From positions 27,375-91,374 of the IMG/VR virus record IMGVR_UViG_3300040751_004835: a stretch of DNA of 64,000 nucleotides. The stretch is one strand, 5' to 3'. A program made the position numbers and the translations under genes. The notes beneath the pieces are model-generated. The model did not search any database. It had not been told where the DNA came from and worked only from the letters and a program-made list of their open reading frames with translations. Origin of the DNA: a virus. How positions within the stretch are numbered: the first letter of the stretch is position 1; every line of letters begins with the position of its first letter. Shown here in pieces: positions 14,817 to 42,946 of the stretch.

Positions 14817-14846
14817 AAAGCCTTCCTATTTAGGAGGGCTTTTTTG
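14817..14846 (+). terminator. Rho-independent terminator
   Basis: AAAGCCTTCCTA-TT-TAGGAGGGCTTT followed by T run. Confidence 0.8.
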
Positions 14847-14883
14847 TGTTGATATATAACTTGTATTCTTAAACACGTTCATT

Positions 14884-15555
14884 TTGAAAACACTAGTCGG
14901 AATAGATTTTTCCCTCAATTCACCAGCATTTTGTATTTTAAGAGAAAACCAATTTACTTGGGGTTCCCTAACTAGGAGCGACCGGACTGCGGAATCCCTT
15001 AAGAAAAATACTAAAAAACCTTACTATGTTTTATCTGAAGACAAAACGGAAGACTATGTTCTTATGTTTATGTCAAAGGATAAAATGCCAGAAGACTACT
15101 CGGAAAGGGAAAGAATAAAGATAGATTATTTCCAGGAGCTCGTTGATGAATTTTGGTCTGAAATAGAAAATATCTGTGCAGGTGATGACATCATTGTAGC
15201 TATGGAAGGACTAAGTTTTGCCTCTAATGGTAATGCTTTGATTGATATCTCTATGGCCACAGCTCTACTCCGTAAGAAGATAGTTGACCACACAGGTAGC
15301 GATAATTTCTACGTTTATTCGCCAACTTCTATAAAGAAGTTCGCTTTTAAGGGAAATGCAAAAAAGCACGAACTTTATAATTCACTTCTTGATCGCAAAT
15401 TTCCAGAAACTAATTTAGGGTCTTTCACTAGTATTTTAGAAGAAAATAAGGACGAATGGATAACTCCCTCCGGTAATGTAAACAAGCCATTGGATGATAT
15501 TATAGATTCGACCTGGATATGTTTATTTTTATATGACTCAATCAAAGAAGGTTAA
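14884..15555 (+). CDS. RuvC-like Holliday junction resolvase (TTG start)
   Basis: GIDFSLNSPA, VAMEG, PTSIKKFA.KGNAKK, DDIIDS acidic RNase H-fold motifs. Confidence 0.75.
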   Translation: MKTLVGIDFSLNSPAFCILRENQFTWGSLTRSDRTAESLKKNTKKPYYVLSEDKTEDYVLMFMSKDKMPEDYSERERIKIDYFQELVDEFWSEIENICAGDDIIVAMEGLSFASNGNALIDISMATALLRKKIVDHTGSDNFYVYSPTSIKKFAFKGNAKKHELYNSLLDRKFPETNLGSFTSILEENKDEWITPSGNVNKPLDDIIDSTWICLFLYDSIKEG

Positions 15556-16264
15556 CATTCTTATTCCTCTCGGAGGTGCTGGAAGGAGATTCAGCGACGC
15601 TGGATACTTACAGATAAAGCCATTTATAGACGTCAGCGGAGAAACGATGATTAGGTCTGTGATCAAAAACCTAAATCATCAAGATGCACACTTTGTATTT
15701 GTGATAAACGAGGAATATATTTCTCCCACAGAATTTGAATCCCATATATCAGACATGGGAATATCGTTTGAGGTTTTCTCAACCCCAACCCTAACACAAG
15801 GACCAGCTTCAACAGTTCTCTTTGCAAGTCAGTCGATTGATAACGATTTACCCCTTATTGTTGTTAACTGTGATCAGATTATTCTGGATTTCAATCTGGA
15901 CTTCATTTTAGATTTTGCAAGAACTACGGGGTGTGATGGATTGTTGGGATGTTTTCTTTCCTCTTCTAAAAAGAACAGCTATGTTAAGTTAGATCCAAAC
16001 GGAGAGGTCTGTGATGTGAAGGAAAAAATTGTGATTTCCAACATTGCTACTAACGGGTTACATTTTTGGAAGCACGGCAAATACTTTGTAGAAAGTGCGG
16101 AACAAATGATAGCAGCAAACGATCGATATAATAATGAGTTCTACGTTGCACCTACCTACAATTACATGATAAAAAGTGGAAAGAAAATATTGCCCTTCTT
16201 CTATAACCTTCACTTTCCGATAGGTACCCCAGAGGACCTGGATAAATTTTTAAAGTTGGTTTAG
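15533..16264 (+). CDS. Sugar-phosphate nucleotidyltransferase (NTP_transferase family)
   Basis: ILIPLGGAGRRF...KPFIDV, TQGPAST, VNCDQ, VKEK, NEFYVAP, GTPEDL. Confidence 0.85.
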   Translation: MTQSKKVNILIPLGGAGRRFSDAGYLQIKPFIDVSGETMIRSVIKNLNHQDAHFVFVINEEYISPTEFESHISDMGISFEVFSTPTLTQGPASTVLFASQSIDNDLPLIVVNCDQIILDFNLDFILDFARTTGCDGLLGCFLSSSKKNSYVKLDPNGEVCDVKEKIVISNIATNGLHFWKHGKYFVESAEQMIAANDRYNNEFYVAPTYNYMIKSGKKILPFFYNLHFPIGTPEDLDKFLKLV

Positions 16265-16267
16265 TTT

Positions 16268-16591
16268 ATGGAAGTTTATAGAATTGAAGATATGGAGGGA
16301 GGTTGGTATGCTGGAGATTTCTCCCCAGTAGCTTACCAAACTAGTGATTTTGAGATTTGTTATAAAAAGCACTTCAAGGGCGAAGAGTGGCCAAAACATT
16401 ACCATAAGGAAGCGGATGAAATAAACTTCCTCAGATCGGGTAAAATGATTATACAAGGACGGGAATTAAATTCGGGGGATGTGTTTATTCTAAGGAAAGA
16501 TGAAATTGCTGACCCCGTATTTTTGGAAGACTGTGAAGTTTTTATAGTTAAGACCCCCTCGGTTCCTGGTGATAAATTTGTAATTGAATGA
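16268..16591 (+). CDS. Cupin-fold protein
   Basis: GWYAGDF...HYHKEADEIN...GKMII...GDVFIL cupin metal motif. Confidence 0.75.
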   Translation: MEVYRIEDMEGGWYAGDFSPVAYQTSDFEICYKKHFKGEEWPKHYHKEADEINFLRSGKMIIQGRELNSGDVFILRKDEIADPVFLEDCEVFIVKTPSVPGDKFVIE

Positions 16592-17823
16592 TAAGCATTT
16601 TTAAAAATAAGGCGGATTTCGATACATCCCAGTATTTTATAGTCAAATACTTTTTGGAAGCTAAAACTTCTTTGAGAGAAGCTTCCTGGAATTTGGCTAT
16701 AGGTCAAAGTATAGGTAACCCGAATAATAGGAGCGAGTGGGAAACCGATGAGATGTTTGAAAATCACAGTTGCTTTATTCTTGCAAACGAAGAAGATCTT
16801 GCCCAACTAAAAGAGGGCGAGATCGAGATAGCTTTTCCTCTAGCAAATCTTAATTTGGAAGAAGACGGGATCTCTCAAATACTTTGTCATATAGCTGGTG
16901 GTCAGGTTGACATAGAGGAAGTAAGACAATGTCATGTCTTGGACATTTCTTTGCCTGAGGATGCTGAGAGATCATTTTCTTTAAATCCGGCCTATGGTAT
17001 TGATGGATGGAGGAAATTTAATGGTATAAACCAAAGACCTTTCTTAGGTGGAATAGTTAAACCTAAGGTTGGTATGTCTCCCTCTGTTCTTCTCGAAGCT
17101 GTGAAGGAAATGGTTTATGGTGGTGTGAATTTCATCAAAGAGGATGAATTACTTGCTAACCCTTCCCACTGCCCTCTTGAAGAAAGAGTACCTTTGATTT
17201 CATCCTGGTTAAAAGAGAATGCGCCCAACGTAATTTATTGCTTTTGCATAAATGGTGATAGTCCATATGCCTTAGAAAGAGCAAAATTTGTAGCAGATAA
17301 CGGTGGGAACGGAATACACATAAACGTGTGGAGTGGACTGGGAATTTATCGTGCTATTAGAAAGCAAAATCCAAATCTCTGGATACATTTCCAAAAGAGC
17401 GGAGATAAATTCTTTACTGACCGTAGGGCGCCAAACCACATTTACTGGCCGGTTTTGTGCAAGATCGCTGGATGGTCTGGAGTCGATTCGATCCATGCAG
17501 GAATGATCGGCGGTTATATGAGCCAAGATGAGCAGGAAATAAAAGATACCTTACAAACCCTTTGGAATTATAACATTGTTCCTGCTTTAAGCTGTGGTAT
17601 GCATCCAGGGCTTGTTGAGTATATTAATACAACAATAGGAAGCTTCGATTGGATGGCAAACGTTGGTGGTGCTATGCATGGACACCCTCAGGGGACTAGG
17701 ACTGGTGCCTTGGCAATGAGACAGTCTATCGATGGAGATCACGATCAACCTGAATATAAAGCAGCAATAGAAAAATGGGGTAACAAATGTTTCTCTGAAG
17801 ATCTAGACTATCGAATATTCTGA
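16588..17823 (+). CDS. RuBisCO-like protein (form IV-like RLP)
   Basis: GGIVKPKVGM (K175/K177), GGVNFIKEDE (K201/D203/E204), DSIHAG (H327), PALSCGMH, NVGGAMHGHP; H294 position is Q and K334 is absent. Confidence 0.9.
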   Translation: MISIFKNKADFDTSQYFIVKYFLEAKTSLREASWNLAIGQSIGNPNNRSEWETDEMFENHSCFILANEEDLAQLKEGEIEIAFPLANLNLEEDGISQILCHIAGGQVDIEEVRQCHVLDISLPEDAERSFSLNPAYGIDGWRKFNGINQRPFLGGIVKPKVGMSPSVLLEAVKEMVYGGVNFIKEDELLANPSHCPLEERVPLISSWLKENAPNVIYCFCINGDSPYALERAKFVADNGGNGIHINVWSGLGIYRAIRKQNPNLWIHFQKSGDKFFTDRRAPNHIYWPVLCKIAGWSGVDSIHAGMIGGYMSQDEQEIKDTLQTLWNYNIVPALSCGMHPGLVEYINTTIGSFDWMANVGGAMHGHPQGTRTGALAMRQSIDGDHDQPEYKAAIEKWGNKCFSEDLDYRIF

Positions 17824-17824
17824 T

Positions 17825-18259
17825 ATGAAGCTAATATCACATAGAGGTAATTTAAAAGGTCCAAATCCGGATAGAGAAAATACGATTGACTATATACAGG
17901 AAGCTCTTGATCTGGGGTATGATGTGGAGATCGACGTTTGGATCTCCGGAGCATCAATCTATTTGGGACACGATTCTCCAGAAACCAAAATACATCTTGC
18001 TTGGCTTTTAGAAAGAGGGGATAAGTTATGGATACATTGTAAAAACATATCAGCTATGGTTTATCTGAAGGAATATGGAGATCTCAATGTTTTTTGGCAC
18101 GAAAACGACAAGGTAACCCTTACCTCTAAATCTTTCATTTGGGCTTTTCCTGGGATGCAACCAATTAGCAAAAGCATTGCGGTTTTACCTGAGATGTACG
18201 AGGAGAAAGTTGATAGTTGTTGTGGTGTATGTTCTGATTATATTGTGAATTATTCATGA
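17825..18259 (+). CDS. Short glycerophosphodiester phosphodiesterase-like protein
   Basis: ISHRGN...ENT...GYDVEIDVW...LGHD...WIHCKN...GVCSD. Confidence 0.7.
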   Translation: MKLISHRGNLKGPNPDRENTIDYIQEALDLGYDVEIDVWISGASIYLGHDSPETKIHLAWLLERGDKLWIHCKNISAMVYLKEYGDLNVFWHENDKVTLTSKSFIWAFPGMQPISKSIAVLPEMYEEKVDSCCGVCSDYIVNYS

Positions 18260-19038
18260 GGATTGCCTTACTACTTCCTGGTCAAATAAGGGAAGCTCAG
18301 GATTCCTTCCCGTTTATCAAGTCAGAAATTTTAGATAAGTACGATACTGATGTTTTCATATCAACCTGGAATCCTTCCGGTGAAATCAACCAGTCTCTTC
18401 ATGCTGAAACTAAGGACCTAGTGGATTCCTTAACTATTGACGATCTTATAAAGATGTATTCACCTAAGCATTTGAAGACTGACGATTTTGGTTCTGCTGC
18501 GATTAAAAGGTTTATTGACAGAGCTTGGTCGTATGAAAAGTTTGGTCCACAGACTGGTGAGATCAACCCAGTGTCTGTTTTTTTGATGTGGTATAAAATT
18601 AGACAAGCTTTCTCCCTGATGGAAGAATATGAAATCCAGGTAGGTCAAAAGTACGATTGCGTCATCAAGGGAAGAATGGATATTAAGATCCACAATGAAT
18701 TGAATTTAGGACGGGACTTGGATAAGATCAACGTCCCTCCTGGGTTTGATTGGAAGGGTGGAGTAAATGATATATTGGCTTGGGGTGGCAGAGAATCAAT
18801 GGAACATTACTGCAAAATGTTCGACTATCTGGAGGAGTATATTATATCCGATATTTACTTCCACCCTGAAACTTTACTAAGATATCACATAGAAAGTTCT
18901 GAATTTGGTTTATCTAGGCCGTTTGTCAAAGTTTCACTCCGAGGTAAGAATGTTTGGGAGACCGAAGTATCAGAAAACGAAATAGATGAAAAAAGTTTTG
19001 GATATATAATGTCTAGGGGAAACATTTGGGACACTTAG
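18256..19038 (+). CDS. Putative glycosyltransferase-like protein
   Basis: RIALLLPGQIR, DVFISTW, KYDCVIKGRMD, ND.LAWG, HPETLL; resembles GT-A-like proteins of phage/polysaccharide loci. Confidence 0.5.
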   Translation: MRIALLLPGQIREAQDSFPFIKSEILDKYDTDVFISTWNPSGEINQSLHAETKDLVDSLTIDDLIKMYSPKHLKTDDFGSAAIKRFIDRAWSYEKFGPQTGEINPVSVFLMWYKIRQAFSLMEEYEIQVGQKYDCVIKGRMDIKIHNELNLGRDLDKINVPPGFDWKGGVNDILAWGGRESMEHYCKMFDYLEEYIISDIYFHPETLLRYHIESSEFGLSRPFVKVSLRGKNVWETEVSENEIDEKSFGYIMSRGNIWDT

Positions 19039-19079: not shown

Positions 19080-20033
19080 ATGAGTAATTTAGACATTTTT
19101 AATTTGGATGCGGAAGCATTCGTAACGAAAGCAAAAAAGGAGAATTCAGAAGGAACAGAATTTTACAAACCATATCCGGAAAACGGAAAGGATGGAGTTT
19201 ACAAATCGCTGATCCGTTTTCTTCCTAACCACGTCGATCCGACGAAATCAAAAATCCACAAGTACTACGTTTATCTAAACGATCCAACAACAGGTGATGG
19301 ATTTCCAGTTGACTGTCCGTCAACGGTAGGAAAAAAATCGGTACTTAAGGATATGTTCTGGAAGCTGAAAAATTCACATTCAGCAGCAGACCAAGAATTA
19401 TCAAGAAGTTTTTCTAGAAAGGAAGACTACTACTCACTCATTCAAATCGTACAGGATAAACACAATCCTGAGCTTGAGGGAAAAATTATGATCTTCAAAT
19501 TTGGACGTAAGCTGAATGATATGCTCGAAGCACAGCTCAAGCCTGAATATGGAGATTCTTGCAACCCTTACGACCTTTTCGAGGGTAAACTTTTCTCAGT
19601 ACATACAAGAAAAGTTGGTGAGTGGAACAACTACGATCTTTGCTCATTCGTTGGTGATAGAACCGCTATCGAGATCAACGGCAAGAAGATGGCTAAGAAT
19701 CAGGATGACATGAATGCAATCATGGAATACCTTAAAACAGGTCCTGATAACCTCACACAATTTGAATACAAGGATTGGGATCAAAATACTACCGACCGTG
19801 TGATGAATGTTATTAAGAATTCAGTTCCTGACGGAAGATTAGTTAATGAGGTTTTAGGAGGTGTAAACCAATCTTCTACTACAACTTCATCTTCTAGTTC
19901 AACGAACGATTTCTATAATGAAGCTTCTTCAACAAAGGTAGGATCCGAACCTGCAAAAGAGGATAAAGGCATCAGCCAACCTTCAGCACCAGAAACTTCA
20001 TCGTCCCTAGACGACCTATACGCAGATCTCTAA
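19080..20033 (+). CDS. ssDNA-binding protein, T4 gp32-like
   Basis: LIRFLP, YSLIQIVQD..NPELEGKIMIFKFGRKL, NPYDLFEG, NYD, acidic tail ending LDDLYADL. Confidence 0.85.
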   Translation: MSNLDIFNLDAEAFVTKAKKENSEGTEFYKPYPENGKDGVYKSLIRFLPNHVDPTKSKIHKYYVYLNDPTTGDGFPVDCPSTVGKKSVLKDMFWKLKNSHSAADQELSRSFSRKEDYYSLIQIVQDKHNPELEGKIMIFKFGRKLNDMLEAQLKPEYGDSCNPYDLFEGKLFSVHTRKVGEWNNYDLCSFVGDRTAIEINGKKMAKNQDDMNAIMEYLKTGPDNLTQFEYKDWDQNTTDRVMNVIKNSVPDGRLVNEVLGGVNQSSTTTSSSSSTNDFYNEASSTKVGSEPAKEDKGISQPSAPETSSSLDDLYADL

Positions 20034-20106: not shown

Positions 20107-21168
20107 ATGGATTTGGGTAGAATTAGGGAACTTTTAGATGACATTTTAAGAAAAGAGTTTGCTGGAAATGCTGGCAAACAAAAGATATATGAGGCTGGTA
20201 ATAGATTAAATATTTCTTGTCCATATTGCGGAGATAGCTCAAATCCTCGTAAGAAGAGGGGAAATTTCTACGTTGACACACTCACATATAAATGCTACAA
20301 TGGTGGTTGCGGGATTTATAAGGATGCTTTTTCGATGTTCAGGGATTTTCAGGTTGTATCAAAGCTTGACGGTGACGAAAAGAGGGATATCATTGACCTA
20401 ATTAAGAAGGGTAAGGAAAAGAGACAAACCACTTATGGCGACGTAGACATTTCTTTGTTTTTCGATACTGATTTCAAATCCGTAGTTATTCCAAGGGAGA
20501 GATTCATGCAAGAAATGGGACTCCAGGAGGTTAAGGGCTCTAAGATGGAAAACTATTTGATACGTAGAAACCAGCAATCCGATGACAAGTTTGCCTGGGA
20601 TCCTGAAACTGGTAAACTTTACCTTTTCAATCTATCCAAGGATAATGAGATACTTGGTTTACAATTTAGAAATATGGATTCCACATATGGTTCCAAATAT
20701 TACACATATAAACTAAGTGGAATATGGGAAAAGCTTCTTAAGACGGACGATCAAAATTTGATAGAAGAGGCAAAAAAGATAGATCCAGTATCATTTGTTT
20801 TTAATGTGGGGCGGATTTCTTTTGACCGAACCATCACAATCTTCGAGGGTCCAATGGATTCATGGCTCTGGAAAAATTCGGTTGCACTTTGCTCTATAGA
20901 AAACAAATTTCCGTTTGATGTTGAAAATGTACAATACTGGTATGATTGGGATAATGCGGGAAGGCAGAAACACTCTGAACTCTTATCTGCTGGTAAAAAA
21001 GTGTTTAATTGGAAGAAGTTTTTAACAGATCACGAACTTCCGATAAATAGGAAATGGGACTTAAATGACCTTGTAAATTTTCTTCGTGCGAAGAGAATAA
21101 AAATAAGGAGATTGGATAACTACTTTACTGAGGAAATACTTGATTTATCCGATTTCATATATGCTTGA
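20107..21168 (+). CDS. DNA primase, T4 gp61-like
   Basis: Zn finger CPYCGDS...CYNGGC; TOPRIM IFEGPMD and DWDNAG; KWDLND. Confidence 0.85.
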   Translation: MDLGRIRELLDDILRKEFAGNAGKQKIYEAGNRLNISCPYCGDSSNPRKKRGNFYVDTLTYKCYNGGCGIYKDAFSMFRDFQVVSKLDGDEKRDIIDLIKKGKEKRQTTYGDVDISLFFDTDFKSVVIPRERFMQEMGLQEVKGSKMENYLIRRNQQSDDKFAWDPETGKLYLFNLSKDNEILGLQFRNMDSTYGSKYYTYKLSGIWEKLLKTDDQNLIEEAKKIDPVSFVFNVGRISFDRTITIFEGPMDSWLWKNSVALCSIENKFPFDVENVQYWYDWDNAGRQKHSELLSAGKKVFNWKKFLTDHELPINRKWDLNDLVNFLRAKRIKIRRLDNYFTEEILDLSDFIYA

Positions 21169-32616: not shown

Positions 32617-34029
32617 ATGATTGTAGATATTGAAAATAAAGGAACATATTTAAAGGTATCATCATACTCTGAAGATGGTGATTTAATTTTTGTTGATGTT
32701 CCAGTCCCGGAAGAAGAGAGATTTATTTGGGAAAAGTGCTCACCCAATGATAGGAGAAAAGAAGCTGATTGGCATTCTTGGGATGGAATGCCTGTTAGAA
32801 AGGTCAACACTCAGAAGTATGACAAATATAGGATGGTTCAGATTCTGGAAGAAGCTGATCCAGAGCTAACTAAGTCCCTTTGGGATTTCCAGATTCCAAA
32901 AAAATACTTTGTGGATATTGAGGTCGAGATGACCGACGAAATGGGGGATTCTTTGGATACTGCTAATGCTAAGAATAAAGTACTTTCGATCGGTATTGCA
33001 ACCGATAGATGTAAGTCGATAATTCTAGGACTGGACCCACTTTCAGCTGAAGAACAAGCAGACATTTACAAAAAGACCAATGAGTACTTGGAGCCGATGG
33101 GAGATGAATGGTCTTTCAAGTACCATCAGTTTGAGTCGGAGTATGATATGCTTTATACTTTCTTCAAGAAATTGGCTCCTAAAATGCCACTGATTACCGG
33201 ATGGAACTGGTTTGGGTATGACTGGCCGTATCTGGTTAATCGTGCTAAGAGACTTGGTATCGACCCCAAGGTAATTTCACCAGCCAATTGGCTTATAGGT
33301 AAGAACAATCTTCCCATGCACTTACTAATGGTCGATTATCTTGAGATCTATAAAAAATGGGATCGAACAATTAAGATCAAGGAGAGCAATAGATTGGACT
33401 ACGTAGCGGAAAAGGCTACAGGATTAAAGAAGATAGTATATGAAGGATCTTTGAGGGACCTTTACCAGTCTGACTTCCCTAAGTTTATTCTTTACAACGT
33501 AATTGACTGTGCTCTTGTCCACTATATTGATGTGAAGCTAAAAACGCTGTTAACTTATTTTAAAATAGCCAACCTCAACCGTGTTGAAATCAGTAGGGCA
33601 CTTTCTCCAGTGTGGGCGACTGAGGTTATGATGCTCAAAAAGTTCTTGGAGAGGAATCAGGTCTTTGTGAATGAGAGGAAGGAAGAAAGTCATGTCAAGT
33701 TTATTGGTGGATATGTGAAAGAGCCTATCAAGGGACTACACGAATGGGTTGCTTGTTACGACTTTGCTTCACTATACCCAAACACGATTGTCCAATGGGG
33801 TATTTCTCCGGAGGTTTATAAGGGTAAACTTGGAAAAGATATATCTGAAGCCAAAGAGGGATGGGTGAAAACCTCTTCCACTGCTCTTTTTGGTGGGGAT
33901 GATGAAAGTCCAATTCTGAAGACAATAATTAAGGATCTGTACTCAAAAAGGAAAGCAACAAAAAAGAGAATGCTTGAGTTACAAATAGAAATTGACGGAT
34001 TGGAGAAACAATTGAAAAAATTAACATAG
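32617..34029 (+). CDS. Family B DNA polymerase, N-terminal half (3'-5' exonuclease plus motif A)
   Basis: ExoI FVDIE, ExoII GWNWFGYDWPYL, ExoIII YNVID, GGYVKEP, YDFASLYPN; ends in the fingers helix. Confidence 0.9.
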   Translation: MIVDIENKGTYLKVSSYSEDGDLIFVDVPVPEEERFIWEKCSPNDRRKEADWHSWDGMPVRKVNTQKYDKYRMVQILEEADPELTKSLWDFQIPKKYFVDIEVEMTDEMGDSLDTANAKNKVLSIGIATDRCKSIILGLDPLSAEEQADIYKKTNEYLEPMGDEWSFKYHQFESEYDMLYTFFKKLAPKMPLITGWNWFGYDWPYLVNRAKRLGIDPKVISPANWLIGKNNLPMHLLMVDYLEIYKKWDRTIKIKESNRLDYVAEKATGLKKIVYEGSLRDLYQSDFPKFILYNVIDCALVHYIDVKLKTLLTYFKIANLNRVEISRALSPVWATEVMMLKKFLERNQVFVNERKEESHVKFIGGYVKEPIKGLHEWVACYDFASLYPNTIVQWGISPEVYKGKLGKDISEAKEGWVKTSSTALFGGDDESPILKTIIKDLYSKRKATKKRMLELQIEIDGLEKQLKKLT

Positions 34030-39919: not shown

Positions 39920-41182
39920 ATGGCTTCCAAGACCAAAAAGAAAAGGGCAAAAAAATCTACTACCCCCAGTAAATCAAAATCTTCAAACCAGCAGGTTGAT
40001 TTAACAAAGCAAGACATTTCACTTTGTCTTGTTATGATTGTAAAGGATGAGGAGGACACTATTAGGAGGTGTCTCACTCAAGTTTCTCCTTACATTTCCT
40101 ATTATGTCATAGTTGATACTGGATCCTCTGATAATACTATCCAGGAGATTAATTCTACTATGGAAGAACTCGGTATTGACGGGGAGGTTCACGAAAGACC
40201 TTGGGTAAATTTTGAGGTAAACAGAACAGAAAGTTTACAGCTTGCTAAGGGAAAATGTGATTATAGGTGGATAATCGATGCAGACGATACATTTAGAGTA
40301 GCAAATCCTGAGGTAAATCCTTTTAGCAATTTACCAAAAGAGAAGGTTGATTGCTTACAGATTCTTTATAAGCTCAACAACCTTCAATATCATAGGGCTC
40401 AAATTGTAAGATCTGACCAGGATTGGGTTTATAAGGGGGTACTCCATGAATATTTGGAATTACCTGGGAAGGAACCTTTGATTCAATACCAGATCCCTAG
40501 AGATAAATGTTACGTTGATGCCGACATCAGCCCGCTTAAAAGGGCAAATACACTTGAAGAGAAATATGCGAATGATGCTAATATTCTCGAAAAAGCACTT
40601 GAGGATGAGCCTACAAATACAAGGTATATGTTCTATTTAGCACAAAGCTATAGGGATTCAAACCAGAAAGTGAAGGCGATCGATGCTTACGAAAAAAGGA
40701 TTGAAGCAGGTGGATGGGAAGAAGAGGTATACTATTCAATGTATATGATCGGAAAAATCAAAGAGCAGTTAGGAAGACACCCAGATGAGGTTATACAAGC
40801 TTATTCTAGAGCATGGGAATATAGGCCAGAAAGACTTGAAGCTGTTTTCCATGCAATGAGAAAACTCAGAGAGAGGGGAAGATGGGTAATGTCGTTTACC
40901 TATGGCAACATGGCAGTCAAAAATCCGGGAACTTCTGATATACTATTCGTTGAGCCAGAGGTTTGGCAGTGGAGACTTTTGGATGAATATGCTTTAGCAG
41001 CTTTCCACACTGGAAATCCAGAGCTAGCATTCGAAAAAATAGATGCGGTTGTTAGAGAGGAATTCTTCTCATCCCTCCCACCAAACGAGAAAGATAGGAT
41101 GCTCAAAAACCTAGACCATTATAGAAATGCTGCAGCACAAAAGGCAGAAGCTATAAAATCAAGAGAAGCCGTTAAACAATAA
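39920..41182 (+). CDS. GT2 glycosyltransferase with C-terminal TPRs
   Basis: LCLVMIVKDEE...RCL...VIVDTGSSDNT, DADD, GVLHE, TPR-like RYMFYLAQSYRD. Confidence 0.85.
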   Translation: MASKTKKKRAKKSTTPSKSKSSNQQVDLTKQDISLCLVMIVKDEEDTIRRCLTQVSPYISYYVIVDTGSSDNTIQEINSTMEELGIDGEVHERPWVNFEVNRTESLQLAKGKCDYRWIIDADDTFRVANPEVNPFSNLPKEKVDCLQILYKLNNLQYHRAQIVRSDQDWVYKGVLHEYLELPGKEPLIQYQIPRDKCYVDADISPLKRANTLEEKYANDANILEKALEDEPTNTRYMFYLAQSYRDSNQKVKAIDAYEKRIEAGGWEEEVYYSMYMIGKIKEQLGRHPDEVIQAYSRAWEYRPERLEAVFHAMRKLRERGRWVMSFTYGNMAVKNPGTSDILFVEPEVWQWRLLDEYALAAFHTGNPELAFEKIDAVVREEFFSSLPPNEKDRMLKNLDHYRNAAAQKAEAIKSREAVKQ

Positions 41183-41191
41183 ATATTTAGG

Positions 41192-42946
41192 ATGGCAAAA
41201 ATTCTTTCCATATCTGCAATTGCACACGATTGTGGTGTAGCTCTAATAGAGGACGGGATTGTAAAATACGCTTTTGATGAAGAAAGATTTCGAAGGGTAA
41301 AGGGGATTTTTATACAGTTTTTATTCCCAGATCTCTCCTTGCAAGCCTTAGAAAAAGAAACAGGTATAACGCCATTTGATGATGATGTGATTGTTGTTAT
41401 GTCAAAGTCTGTTCTGTGTGGACTTGATTATATCGAAAAAATTCTTGACGTCAAGGACATTTATCTTTTCGACCACCACTATGCTCATGCATGTACCGCA
41501 TATTACTTATCTGGTTTTTCAGAGGAAACCCTAGTGTTGACTTATGATGCTGGGGATAGTAATGGCATTCATGAATCTGTTTTGACAAAAGAGGTTCTTC
41601 AAAAGATCTACGAACAAAAACTACCTTTCCGCAAAACAGAGATCCCTGAGGAGGATTTTATAAAATTAGCTAGAGGAGAAGTAGACAGGGAAACGAAATT
41701 TTTCCCATATCAGGTGATGATGTATCCAGATAGTTGGTGGAAATCTGAAGATCATATAAAGAATAGGAACAACTGCTCTGTTTACATTGGAAATGGTTCT
41801 AAGCTCACCAACGAGCTGGAATACAGAAACTTTGATTCGATTGCTTCACTGTGGGATGCTTTTTGTCTCTTGAATAATATGTTTGGTGGTAAAGACGAGG
41901 GTAAAATTGTAGGTATGGCTTCTCAGGGTTCATTTAATACTGAGATCAATGAAGCCATCGGACATTTTTTTGATTTTAATGAGGGTTTCTTTTGGGAACA
42001 CTATTGGGATGTTAGAGACTATTTTGAATCCTTGGATCTTAAGAACAGGAAGATCCAAATGGATGCTTCCTTCATGCTGCAATACCTAACAGAAAAATAT
42101 TTTCTTGAAGCCATCGGGTATTTGAAGCAAAAATTTCCTTCTTGTAAAAAATTAGCATTAGCCGGGGGTTTATTCTCAAATGTCAAGCTGAACCAAAAGA
42201 TAAATGAGCTTTCTGAATTTGATGAGATCTTTATTGCCCCTGGAATGGGAGATGGAGGATTAGCGATCGGTGCTGCAATAGCTAAGGCCAATGAACTTGG
42301 TGAATTTGATGTACAGACTATTGATAATGTTTTCTGGGGGAATAAAACGGATACTAACTTTATTCATCCTGGGGTTGAAGAGACCGAGTTAAATTACAGC
42401 CAGATAGCTTCGGAATTGTCTGAGGGTAAGGTAGTTGGGATTTTTTCTAACAGAAGGGAATGGGGTCCAAGAGCTTTGGGTGGAACCTCTATTATGTTTG
42501 ACCCCCGTAGAGAAGATGCCCAAGAATATGTGAATAGAAGGCTCAATCGTAATGAAGTTATGCCATTTGCTCCAGTAGTTATGGATGGATTTGAATCAGT
42601 CCCCTTCTACTGCTACAAATCTAAATATGCTTCCCAATTTATGACCATCTGTTATCCGGTAAAAGAGGAATGGGTGAATAAAATCCCTGGGGTTATAAAT
42701 AGGTTTGATAACACCTCAAGGATTCAAATTGCTAAAAAAGATAACAAACCTTTCTTCCCTATACTAGAGGCTTTTAAAGAAATTACCGGAGTTCCGGTGT
42801 TGATGAATACCTCTTTTAATGTTCATGGTGAACCAATTATTAACGAAACTGAACAAGCAATGAAACACCTAGTGAATGGTGTAGTTGATATTTTGGTTGT
42901 TGATGATAAAGTTTACAGGAAAAAAACTTCCGTCTTTGATATCTAA
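41192..42946 (+). CDS. Carbamoyltransferase (NodU/CmcH/TobZ family)
   Basis: HD.G...EERF.R.K, HHYAHA, EGK..GMA, AGG...NVKLN, GDGG.AIGAA, GPRALG, PFAP, NTSFNVHGEPI. Confidence 0.9.
   Translation: MAKILSISAIAHDCGVALIEDGIVKYAFDEERFRRVKGIFIQFLFPDLSLQALEKETGITPFDDDVIVVMSKSVLCGLDYIEKILDVKDIYLFDHHYAHACTAYYLSGFSEETLVLTYDAGDSNGIHESVLTKEVLQKIYEQKLPFRKTEIPEEDFIKLARGEVDRETKFFPYQVMMYPDSWWKSEDHIKNRNNCSVYIGNGSKLTNELEYRNFDSIASLWDAFCLLNNMFGGKDEGKIVGMASQGSFNTEINEAIGHFFDFNEGFFWEHYWDVRDYFESLDLKNRKIQMDASFMLQYLTEKYFLEAIGYLKQKFPSCKKLALAGGLFSNVKLNQKINELSEFDEIFIAPGMGDGGLAIGAAIAKANELGEFDVQTIDNVFWGNKTDTNFIHPGVEETELNYSQIASELSEGKVVGIFSNRREWGPRALGGTSIMFDPRREDAQEYVNRRLNRNEVMPFAPVVMDGFESVPFYCYKSKYASQFMTICYPVKEEWVNKIPGVINRFDNTSRIQIAKKDNKPFFPILEAFKEITGVPVLMNTSFNVHGEPIINETEQAMKHLVNGVVDILVVDDKVYRKKTSVFDI

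Follow-up and report, generated by a model that had tools for sequence, protein, structure and literature searches.

At positions 15533-19038 of the window, by which we mean the whole 64,000-nt stretch analysed here (positions 27,375-91,374 of the 91-kb viral IMG/VR record IMGVR_UViG_3300040751_004835), five genes are tightly packed on the plus strand between a RuvC-like resolvase gene and a gp32-like gene (Table 1). The five, which we call g1 to g5, include one, g3, for a RuBisCO-like protein (RLP). An earlier note on this DNA had described the cluster and named its products as an NTP transferase, a cupin, an RLP, a GDPD-like hydrolase and a glycosyltransferase-like protein. The gene layout confirmed the arrangement, and profile, motif and structure matches bore out the identities. 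We think it likely, though short of secure, that the five genes are an accessory, horizontally mobile glycan cassette that makes a nucleotide-activated sugar, or something sugar-like, for use by a transferase. The RLP itself probably converts a sugar phosphate on the way to an unusual activated sugar.

Successive cassette genes are separated by +3, -4, +1 and -4 nt (g1-g2, g2-g3, g3-g4 and g4-g5), and the start of g1 overlaps the upstream RuvC-like gene by 23 nt. The cassette genes are real and translationally coupled. They are also under purifying selection: comparison with four relatives gave dN of 0.08-0.36 and omega of 0.03-0.2 where it could be computed, which was for few pairs only because dS was saturated. 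The strong terminator-like hairpin upstream of ruvC is read as the upstream limit of the transcription unit comprising ruvC and the cassette, and no other terminator-like site was found on the plus strand from there to position 20200.

Table 1. Features of the cassette and its borders, in window coordinates
Feature	Coordinates	Strand	Details
Terminator-like hairpin	14817..14842	+	11-bp stem and T run; followed by GATATATA motif
Motif TTGATATATAAC	14843-14870		Between hairpin and ruvC; matches the GATATATA promoter-like motif noted elsewhere in the genome in the earlier note
RuvC-like resolvase	14884..15555	+	phrog_159, 6.8e-13; backbone gene, left insertion border
g1, predicted sugar-phosphate nucleotidyltransferase (NDP-sugar pyrophosphorylase type)	15533..16264	+	243 aa; PF00483 1.8e-10
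g2, small cupin	16268..16591	+	107 aa; cupin motif 1, PDB cupin matches
g3, RLP	16588..17823	+	411 aa; PF00016 1.3e-32
g4, miniature GDPD-type phosphodiesterase (predicted)	17825..18259	+	144 aa; GDPD motifs, AlphaFold2 (AF2) fold
g5, GT-A-fold glycosyltransferase-like protein, near DUF7796	18256..19038	+	260 aa; AF2 and Foldseek
gp32-like single-stranded DNA-binding protein	19080..20033	+	PF08804 1.8e-12; phrog_224 2e-33; right insertion border

The product of g3 matches the RuBisCO_large family (PF00016) at 113.7 bits against a cut-off of 30.1, and its closest solved relatives are a Pyrococcus form III RuBisCO (8.6e-36) and the RLP 3nwr. By its sequence it is a member of the RuBisCO large-subunit superfamily and an RLP (form IV in the broad sense). 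The more specific NCBIfam models fit it poorly. It scored 164 bits against a cut-off of 497 on rubisco_III, 118.7 against 409 (NF007095) and 89.2 against 513.6 (TIGR03332) on the two MtnW models, and 123.3 against 700 on the OiaX/OiaC model of apiose catabolism (NF042437). Identity as an MtnW/YkrW enolase of methionine salvage, which the earlier note had named among the outcomes that would refute its biosynthetic reading, is ruled out by the MtnW scores, and OiaX/OiaC identity was rejected on a score far under the equivalog cut-off. Methionine-salvage genes were not among the RLP neighbours scanned with Pfam and NCBIfam, a scan that left many neighbour clusters unannotated and made no specific search for mtnA, mtnB or mtnK.

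When aligned to 2cwx, the RLP keeps the KPK motif (K175 and K177), the K-E-D-E motif, H327 and the GG loop, and has glutamine in place of H294 and tyrosine in place of K334. The residue calls of the earlier note were thus correct. Further changes replace R295 with K, H298 with D and G380 with C, and E60Q, N123Q and T173I are also present. Across ~110 members of the clade described below, 22 active-site positions are alike: Q60, N65, P66, Q123, I173, K175, K177, K201, D203, E204, Q294, K295, D298, H327, Y334, S379, C380, G381, G403, G404, H407 and H409. The sole variation is H or Q at position 407 in a branch of SAR11, DPANN archaea and Verrucomicrobia. Four subclades, with sequences 31-99% identical overall, share the signature without exception, and six outgroup homologues retain H294, R295, H298, K334 and G380. 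The Mg2+/carbamate site, the enolisation lysines (K175 and K177) and the backbone loop for C1-phosphate binding are retained. Residues for carboxylation and hydration (H294Q, K334Y, E60Q, N123Q and T173I), and some of those at the distal phosphate site, are replaced in a fixed way. So uniform a set of residues argues for a single conserved reaction, without carboxylation, that acts on a phosphorylated keto-sugar. A carboxylating RuBisCO of forms I-III is ruled out by the invariant Q294, K295, Y334, Q60 and Q123 together with the low rubisco_III score.

Two known RLPs offer a likeness, MtnW/YkrW (2,3-diketo-5-methylthiopentyl-1-phosphate enolase) and the Rhodospirillum rubrum RLP, in the RuBisCO fold, the carbamylated-lysine/Mg2+ site and the CO2-free enolisation of a keto-sugar 1-phosphate. 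The R. rubrum enzyme, a 5-methylthioribulose-1-phosphate isomerase, is reportedly paired with a cupin, 1-methylthioxylulose-5-phosphate methylsulfurylase. The window RLP differs from both in Q294, K295, D298, Y334 and C380 and in its anabolic neighbours, a nucleotidyltransferase, a glycosyltransferase and a methyltransferase among them.

A protein search returned ~2,330 RLP homologues; the 120 listed are 75-87% identical and lie on contigs of up to 288 kb. We assembled 131 RLP loci, 80 of them viral and 51 from cellular genome assemblies. In a tree built without reference form IV subfamilies, 110 sequences (68 viral) fell into one clade with a support of 100, apart from six homologues with canonical residues. 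One part of the clade is cell-only and holds Legionella nautarum, L. drozanskii, L. maceachernii, Tatlockia, Francisellaceae, Azospirillum, Turneriella and Elusimicrobia. A second, also cell-only, holds SAR11, DPANN archaea and Verrucomicrobia, and a third, mostly viral, also includes a complete Pelagibacter chromosome and Beckwithbacteria (L092). The range can also be described as phages, SAR11, DPANN archaea, Patescibacteria and Legionella.

Jaffe, Castelle, Dupont and Banfield (Mol Biol Evol, online 2018; PMC6389311) reported ~80 divergent 'form IV-like' RLPs from large phage contigs and Beckwithbacteria and left their function open. On sequence grounds, the window RLP is a member of this phage/Beckwithbacteria clade. 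The two share large Myoviridae-type phage contigs from many environments, a Beckwithbacteria relative, a deep-branching position and partly kept catalytic residues. Carbon metabolism and gene transfer were discussed in that work; linkage or fusion to a nucleotidyltransferase or cupin, a glycan-cluster context and the RpiB module described below were not reported. Unclassified RuBisCO homologues were also noted in ocean data by Yooseph et al. (2007). Full-text literature searches for an RLP connected with nucleotide-sugar or polysaccharide synthesis, with SAR11 or with phage cassettes gave no functional assignment.

The gene most constantly found with the RLP is the nucleotidyltransferase. Among the 80 viral loci, g1 was present in 77, g2 in 74, g4 in 61 and g5 in 33, and the window's flanking genes in 15. 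After dereplication at 90%, the corresponding counts within 6.5 kb of the RLP were 55, 53, 45 and 34 of 57 viral clusters. In cellular loci with an RLP of at least 300 bits against the clade profile, the transferase lay within the fetched locus in 37 of 38, mostly adjoining the RLP, and this held down to 34% identity; it was absent beside the six distant RuBisCO homologues with canonical residues. Fusions were found as well. The g1 and g2 domains are fused in 12 loci, g4 and g5 in one (L056), and a beta-phosphoglucomutase-family HAD protein is fused to g1 in ~15 loci. In two proteins of 813 and 817 aa (P0121 and P0122), the RLP, transferase and cupin form a single chain in that order. The linkage of RLP and nucleotidyltransferase is ancient and extends through phages, bacteria and archaea.

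The wider neighbourhood points to glycans. Many loci have a CmcI/TylF/FkbM-type methyltransferase immediately 3' of the RLP, and common neighbours are NAD-dependent epimerase/reductases, DegT aminotransferases, family 2 glycosyltransferases (GT2) and further g5-like proteins. In other phages, the cassette sits inside large islands of glycosyltransferases, methyltransferases and epimerases. The SAR11 copies lie in surface-glycan clusters among Wzy_C, GT1, GT17, GT61 and Fcl-like and RmlD-like short-chain dehydrogenase/reductase (SDR) proteins; one directly follows pheS-pheT-lepA and is therefore chromosomal. The earlier note had placed the RLP in biosynthesis and nucleotide activation rather than in salvage or CO2 fixation, and had proposed RLP phylogeny and neighbourhood conservation as a check. 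That placement is supported by the linkage, the fusions, the SAR11 glycan clusters and the MtnW scores, and the check yielded the co-occurrence counts given above.

We compared the locus with its relatives through a gp32-seeded search that gave 80 backbone relatives, 79 of which had both ruvC and gp32 in the fetched locus. Among the 16 closest, ruvC and gp32 are ~3.5 kb apart (5.0 kb in L235), with the cassette in between. In 59 others the gap is 39-1288 bp, and no cassette gene was found within ~8 kb on either side. The remaining four (L225-L227 and L234) carry a lone g4 homologue in a gap of 520-540 bp (~7459-7990 in L225), which may be a remnant or a g4 with a use of its own. No RLP match was obtained in four relatives of 270-434 kb and 99-100% completeness, with an alignment model that had no positive control in the tool used. 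In contig L082, the cassette genes are 63-85% identical to those of the window, as against 90-97% for the flanks, and in L055 and L079 identity is only 51-53% for the RLP and ~80% for the flanks. In the lineage of the window phage, the cassette is an accessory, exchangeable 3.5-kb island and not replication machinery.

A related module that lacks the RLP offers a view of what the RLP may do. The T4-like cyanophages S-SM2, Bellamy, S-CAM9, S-PRM1 and B3, and others, encode homologues of g1, g2, g4 and g5 (24-49% identity) in glycan islands; in the 'LPS' (lipopolysaccharide) islands of S-SM2, Bellamy, S-CAM9 and B3 these stand among glycosyltransferases, epimerases and kinases. No RLP was found in the cyanophage islands. 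A search seeded with the Bellamy cupin gave 72 viral loci in which the transferase, cupin, g4 and g5 are contiguous and in the order of the window, and the RLP is present in 0 of 72. In this sister module the transferase and an RpiB/LacAB sugar-phosphate isomerase (PF02502 1e-32; TIGR00689 105 bits against a cut-off of 88) are joined in one 385-aa protein, and 5' of it lie a KdsC-like HAD phosphatase and a PfkB-like kinase. RpiB was found in 69, the KdsC-like HAD in 68 and the PfkB-like kinase in 70 of the 72 RLP-less loci; these three and GHMP kinase were each found in 0 of the 131 RLP loci. The complementary counts argue that the RLP fills the sugar-phosphate isomerase slot. It may stand in place of the isomerase and perhaps also of the kinase and phosphatase, and the sister module is the best available clue that the RLP would act on a free sugar phosphate before activation. 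The module can do without the RLP, since the sister module has RpiB, kinase and phosphatase instead; on this point the reading in the earlier note was not supported. The sister module resembles the NDP-heptose pathways (GmhA, HddA/HldE, GmhB, HddC/HldE) in its logic, which is to isomerise, phosphorylate C1, remove the distal phosphate and activate. The window cassette differs in having the RLP in place of the RpiB isomerase, PfkB-like kinase and KdsC-like phosphatase.

Some features of the cyanophage islands deserve separate mention. Class II aldolase/adducin, considered as a counterpart of the RLP on the strength of S-SM2 and Bellamy, was rejected, being present in only 2 of 55 RLP-less loci and 0 of 131 RLP loci. 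Bellamy gp206 (L135:2172-3329, 385 aa) bears the GenBank name 'phosphatase', and its N-terminal half matches g1. This name looks wrong, as a close homologue (L141:6847-8004) is a predicted nucleotidyltransferase-RpiB/LacAB fusion with the PF02502 match given above. In S-SM2, the 522-aa 'dN-sugar pyrophosphorylase' SSM2_204 (L136:2388-3956) has two tandem g1-like domains, at residues 1-245 and 268-495.

The g1 product matches NTP_transferase (PF00483) at 41.3 bits against a gathering cut-off of 21.2 and conserves G15, G17, R19, K29 and P30 of the N-terminal motif (G-x-G-x-R ... K-P). A profile of 42 homologues best matched 4evw, the structure of an uncharacterised 'NDP-sugar pyrophosphorylase' (3e-34), followed by GDP-mannose pyrophosphorylases, RmlA and HddC at 1e-13 to 1e-9. 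Matches to LicC, IspD and IPCT were weaker, at ~1e-4 (1e-4 to 3e-5 for LicC and IspD).

The g2 product has the motif G-x5-H-x-H-x4-E-x6-G, in which G38, H44, H46, E51 and G58 are nearly invariant and H44, H46 and E51 fully so, and its profile matches PDB cupin structures at E values of 2e-6 to 1e-4. No conserved histidine, the fourth metal ligand of motif 2, was found in the second-motif region, and no Pfam cupin matched at E <= 0.01. It is a probable metal-dependent isomerase or epimerase. Type II phosphomannose isomerase (PMI)/GDP-mannose pyrophosphorylases (ManC/AlgA/WbpW) are similar in that a single protein holds a transferase domain and, after it, a cupin isomerase domain, which is also the layout of the 12 g1-g2 fusions. 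They are also similar in that g1 matches GDP-mannose pyrophosphorylases and g2 matches 7zvm, a small cupin deposited as a mannose-6-phosphate isomerase. The differences are the low similarity, the missing second-motif histidine in the window cupin, the presence of the RLP in the unit and the absence of a linked phosphomannomutase.

The g4 product keeps the GDPD motifs (HRG..EN..ExD..GHD), with H6, R7, E18, N19, E35, D37, H49 and D50 nearly or fully invariant, and its profile matches GDPD structures at 1e-4. No Pfam match was obtained at E <= 0.01 (PF03009), and at 144 aa it is short beside the usual GDPD domain of ~230-250 aa. The AF2 model (pLDDT 97.5) is a barrel without most of its helices. 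Foldseek on g4 alone reached an E value of only ~4e-3 and a protein atlas gave weak GDPD and Menorin leads; a wider VIA search settled the GDPD fold, the top 22 structural matches in VIA-align all being GDPD/PLD proteins (Z 8-10.3, 136-139 of 144 residues aligned). The position of g4 is always between the sugar-forming genes and the glycosyltransferase.

For g5 no Pfam or PDB sequence match was found, and its relatives give weak DUF7796 matches. Its AF2 model (pLDDT 88) matched BoGT6a (GT6), glycogenin (GT8) and alpha-1,3-GalT in Foldseek at E values of 1e-6 to 1e-5 (probability 1.0, TM 0.42-0.46). Conserved residues are G9, R12, D32, Y133-D134, R140-x-D142 and D172.

These assignments suggest a pathway. 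RuBisCO itself carries out an enolisation half-reaction, and misprotonation of the intermediate yields xylulose bisphosphate as a side product. The RLP would enolise a 2-keto-sugar phosphate on its Mg2+/carbamate via an enediolate and reprotonate it, giving an isomer or a C3 epimer. The cupin g2 would act as a second isomerase or epimerase on this product. A host mutase, or the HAD mutase where present, would supply the sugar 1-phosphate, which g1 would couple to a nucleoside monophosphate to give the NDP-sugar. Attachment of the sugar to a glycan on the virion or the host surface would fall to g5 or to other glycosyltransferases, and g4 would cleave a phosphodiester. A branched sugar, which the earlier note had raised as possible, is a guess, and so is giving the dephosphorylation or epimerisation to g4 and g2.

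Several observations weigh against this pathway. The core cassette contains no mutase or anomeric kinase, which leaves the origin of the sugar 1-phosphate unaccounted for. The cupin is missing beside many RLP copies in SAR11, DPANN archaea and Legionella, and g4 occurs elsewhere beside the transferase alone (phage B3) or by itself between ruvC and gp32. The fold match of g5 is moderate (TM ~0.45), and a DxD motif is not established in it. Finally, the RLP and sister loci come from two differently seeded sets, and their complementarity may reflect two lineages that make different sugars and not one shared slot.

In one alternative, the RLP would yield a ketose or alditol phosphate whose primary phosphate g1 would activate, giving a CDP-alcohol-like donor (compare CDP-ribitol, CDP-6-fructose and CDP-choline) for phosphodiester-linked transfer, with g4 making, editing or removing the linkage. 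The lack of a mutase or kinase in the core cassette speaks for this. The characterised RLP substrates that we know of bear terminal, non-anomeric phosphates, and a GDPD-type phosphodiesterase with its full catalytic residues is conserved in the module. In four Legionellaceae genomes (L121:6666-7517 in L. nautarum; L122, L123 and L124), a LicD-family phosphotransferase lies beside the RLP-nucleotidyltransferase pair in divergent orientation. As a general partner LicD was rejected, since it was confined to those four loci. The g1 profile favours sugar-1-phosphate nucleotidyltransferases (GMPP, RmlA, HddC) over LicC, IspD and IPCT by the E values given above, the partner g5 has a GT-A glycosyltransferase fold, and the sister module follows an NDP-heptose type of logic that ends in a sugar 1-phosphate. 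We consider a phosphodiester-type donor unlikely, though the best of the alternatives.

A start from a common sugar 1-phosphate, activated directly by g1, would likewise need no mutase. The RLP and cupin would then tailor an NDP-keto-sugar in the manner of RmlC/FdtA-type cupins, with the nucleotide occupying the former C1-phosphate site. The H-x-H cupin, the Fcl-like and RmlD-like reductases nearby, in loci without a recognisable 4,6-dehydratase, and the RLP-transferase-cupin order of the triple fusion are all compatible with such tailoring. The cupin profile, however, matches cupin_2 and PMI-like structures and not RmlC or FdtA, we know of no RuBisCO-family enzyme that acts on a nucleotide-linked substrate, and in the sister module the place of the RLP is taken by RpiB, which acts before activation. 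Tailoring after activation therefore seems to us decidedly improbable.

The earlier note had listed phage DNA among the possible targets of the sugar, and addition of an activated sugar to phage DNA bases (compare glucosyl- and arabinosyl-hydroxymethylcytosine) would explain why the window cassette lies within a replication and recombination module. In a relative with the same backbone (IMGVR_UViG_3300023172_000016; L133/L134), one protein matches the thymidylate-synthase family strongly (365 aa, 314 bits) and another only very weakly (267 aa, 17.8 bits). No thymidylate-synthase-like or ThyX gene was found in the 91-kb record, which at ~33% completeness makes this result uninformative. The position beside the replication genes is an insertion site, as the 59 cassette-free relatives with ruvC next to gp32 show, and is therefore no evidence for DNA modification. 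That the cassette went undetected in the four near-complete relatives also speaks against a tie to DNA. Elsewhere the cassette lies in the phage glycosyltransferase/methyltransferase/epimerase islands and the O-antigen-like clusters of SAR11. DNA as the target is thus disfavoured, and we rate it very unlikely.

Equally hard to credit is an auxiliary metabolic role of the RLP in methionine/methylthioadenosine salvage, the AMP-pentose bisphosphate pathway or apiose catabolism, with neighbours that are unrelated: every characterised RLP is, to our knowledge, a salvage or catabolic enzyme, and form III RuBisCO and MtnW/OiaX head its PDB and NCBIfam matches, but the scores fall far below the cut-offs, the active-site signature is different and invariant, the scanned neighbours (nucleotidyltransferase, methyltransferase, glycosyltransferase, SDR) include no salvage or catabolic annotation, and two proteins carry RLP and transferase on one chain.

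The completeness quoted for the record is a CheckV estimate. Four relatives that share its gene backbone span 270-434 kb at 99-100% completeness, two with terminal repeats, so the window comes from a jumbo phage. The phage recurs across estuary, marine and oyster metagenomes in many studies. Metatranscriptome contigs from four studies span parts of g2-g5, some free of mismatches; they are short, possibly derived from DNA, and no measure of transcript or level. In a GenBank phage collection of 50,697 records, which may omit records near the window genome, neither the window DNA nor the RLP protein had a match, so no cultured RLP phage was identified. Contig L082 (CALAZP010000190.1, 64 kb) comes from a metagenome-assembled genome bin labelled 'uncultured Saprospirales' and has tail tube, ruvC, cassette, gp32 and primase arranged as in the window. 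Its flank identity and the shared arrangement argue that it is a phage contig within a bacterial bin, and the binning may hint at a host in Saprospirales (Bacteroidota).

Two other features of the window phage lie outside the cassette. A GT2-TPR protein at 39920-41182 adjoins a NodU/CmcH-type carbamoyltransferase at 41192-42946, a second glycan-related pair; the glycan island of cyanophage Bellamy likewise ends in a carbamoyltransferase. The open reading frame at 32617-34029 encodes 470 aa of a family B DNA polymerase, with the exonuclease domain and only the first third of the polymerase domain, and the remainder may be encoded separately, as a split polymerase.

A broader form of the glycan-cassette reading can be put forward tentatively, at low confidence. 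The RLP clade may carry out an anabolic reaction not yet described for the RuBisCO superfamily, a Mg2+/carbamate-dependent isomerisation or C3-epimerisation of a 1-phospho-keto-sugar, providing a rare sugar phosphate without kinase or phosphatase and so replacing the trio of the sister module. The sugar might then be displayed on the surface glycans of SAR11, DPANN archaea, Patescibacteria and Legionella, and on the virions or hosts of large aquatic phages, as a variable recognition determinant. The question lends itself to direct testing, given the invariant signature, the triple fusion found in nature, three Legionella species that can be cultured, and the cultured cyanophages that carry the sister module. 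If true, a clade in nucleotide-sugar biosynthesis would add an anabolic function to the well-studied RuBisCO fold. The clade is widespread and includes SAR11, the most abundant marine bacteria, where it lies in surface-glycan islands thought to govern recognition by phages and grazers. For phage biology, the cassette is a further example of an exchangeable glycan module carried by jumbo phages.

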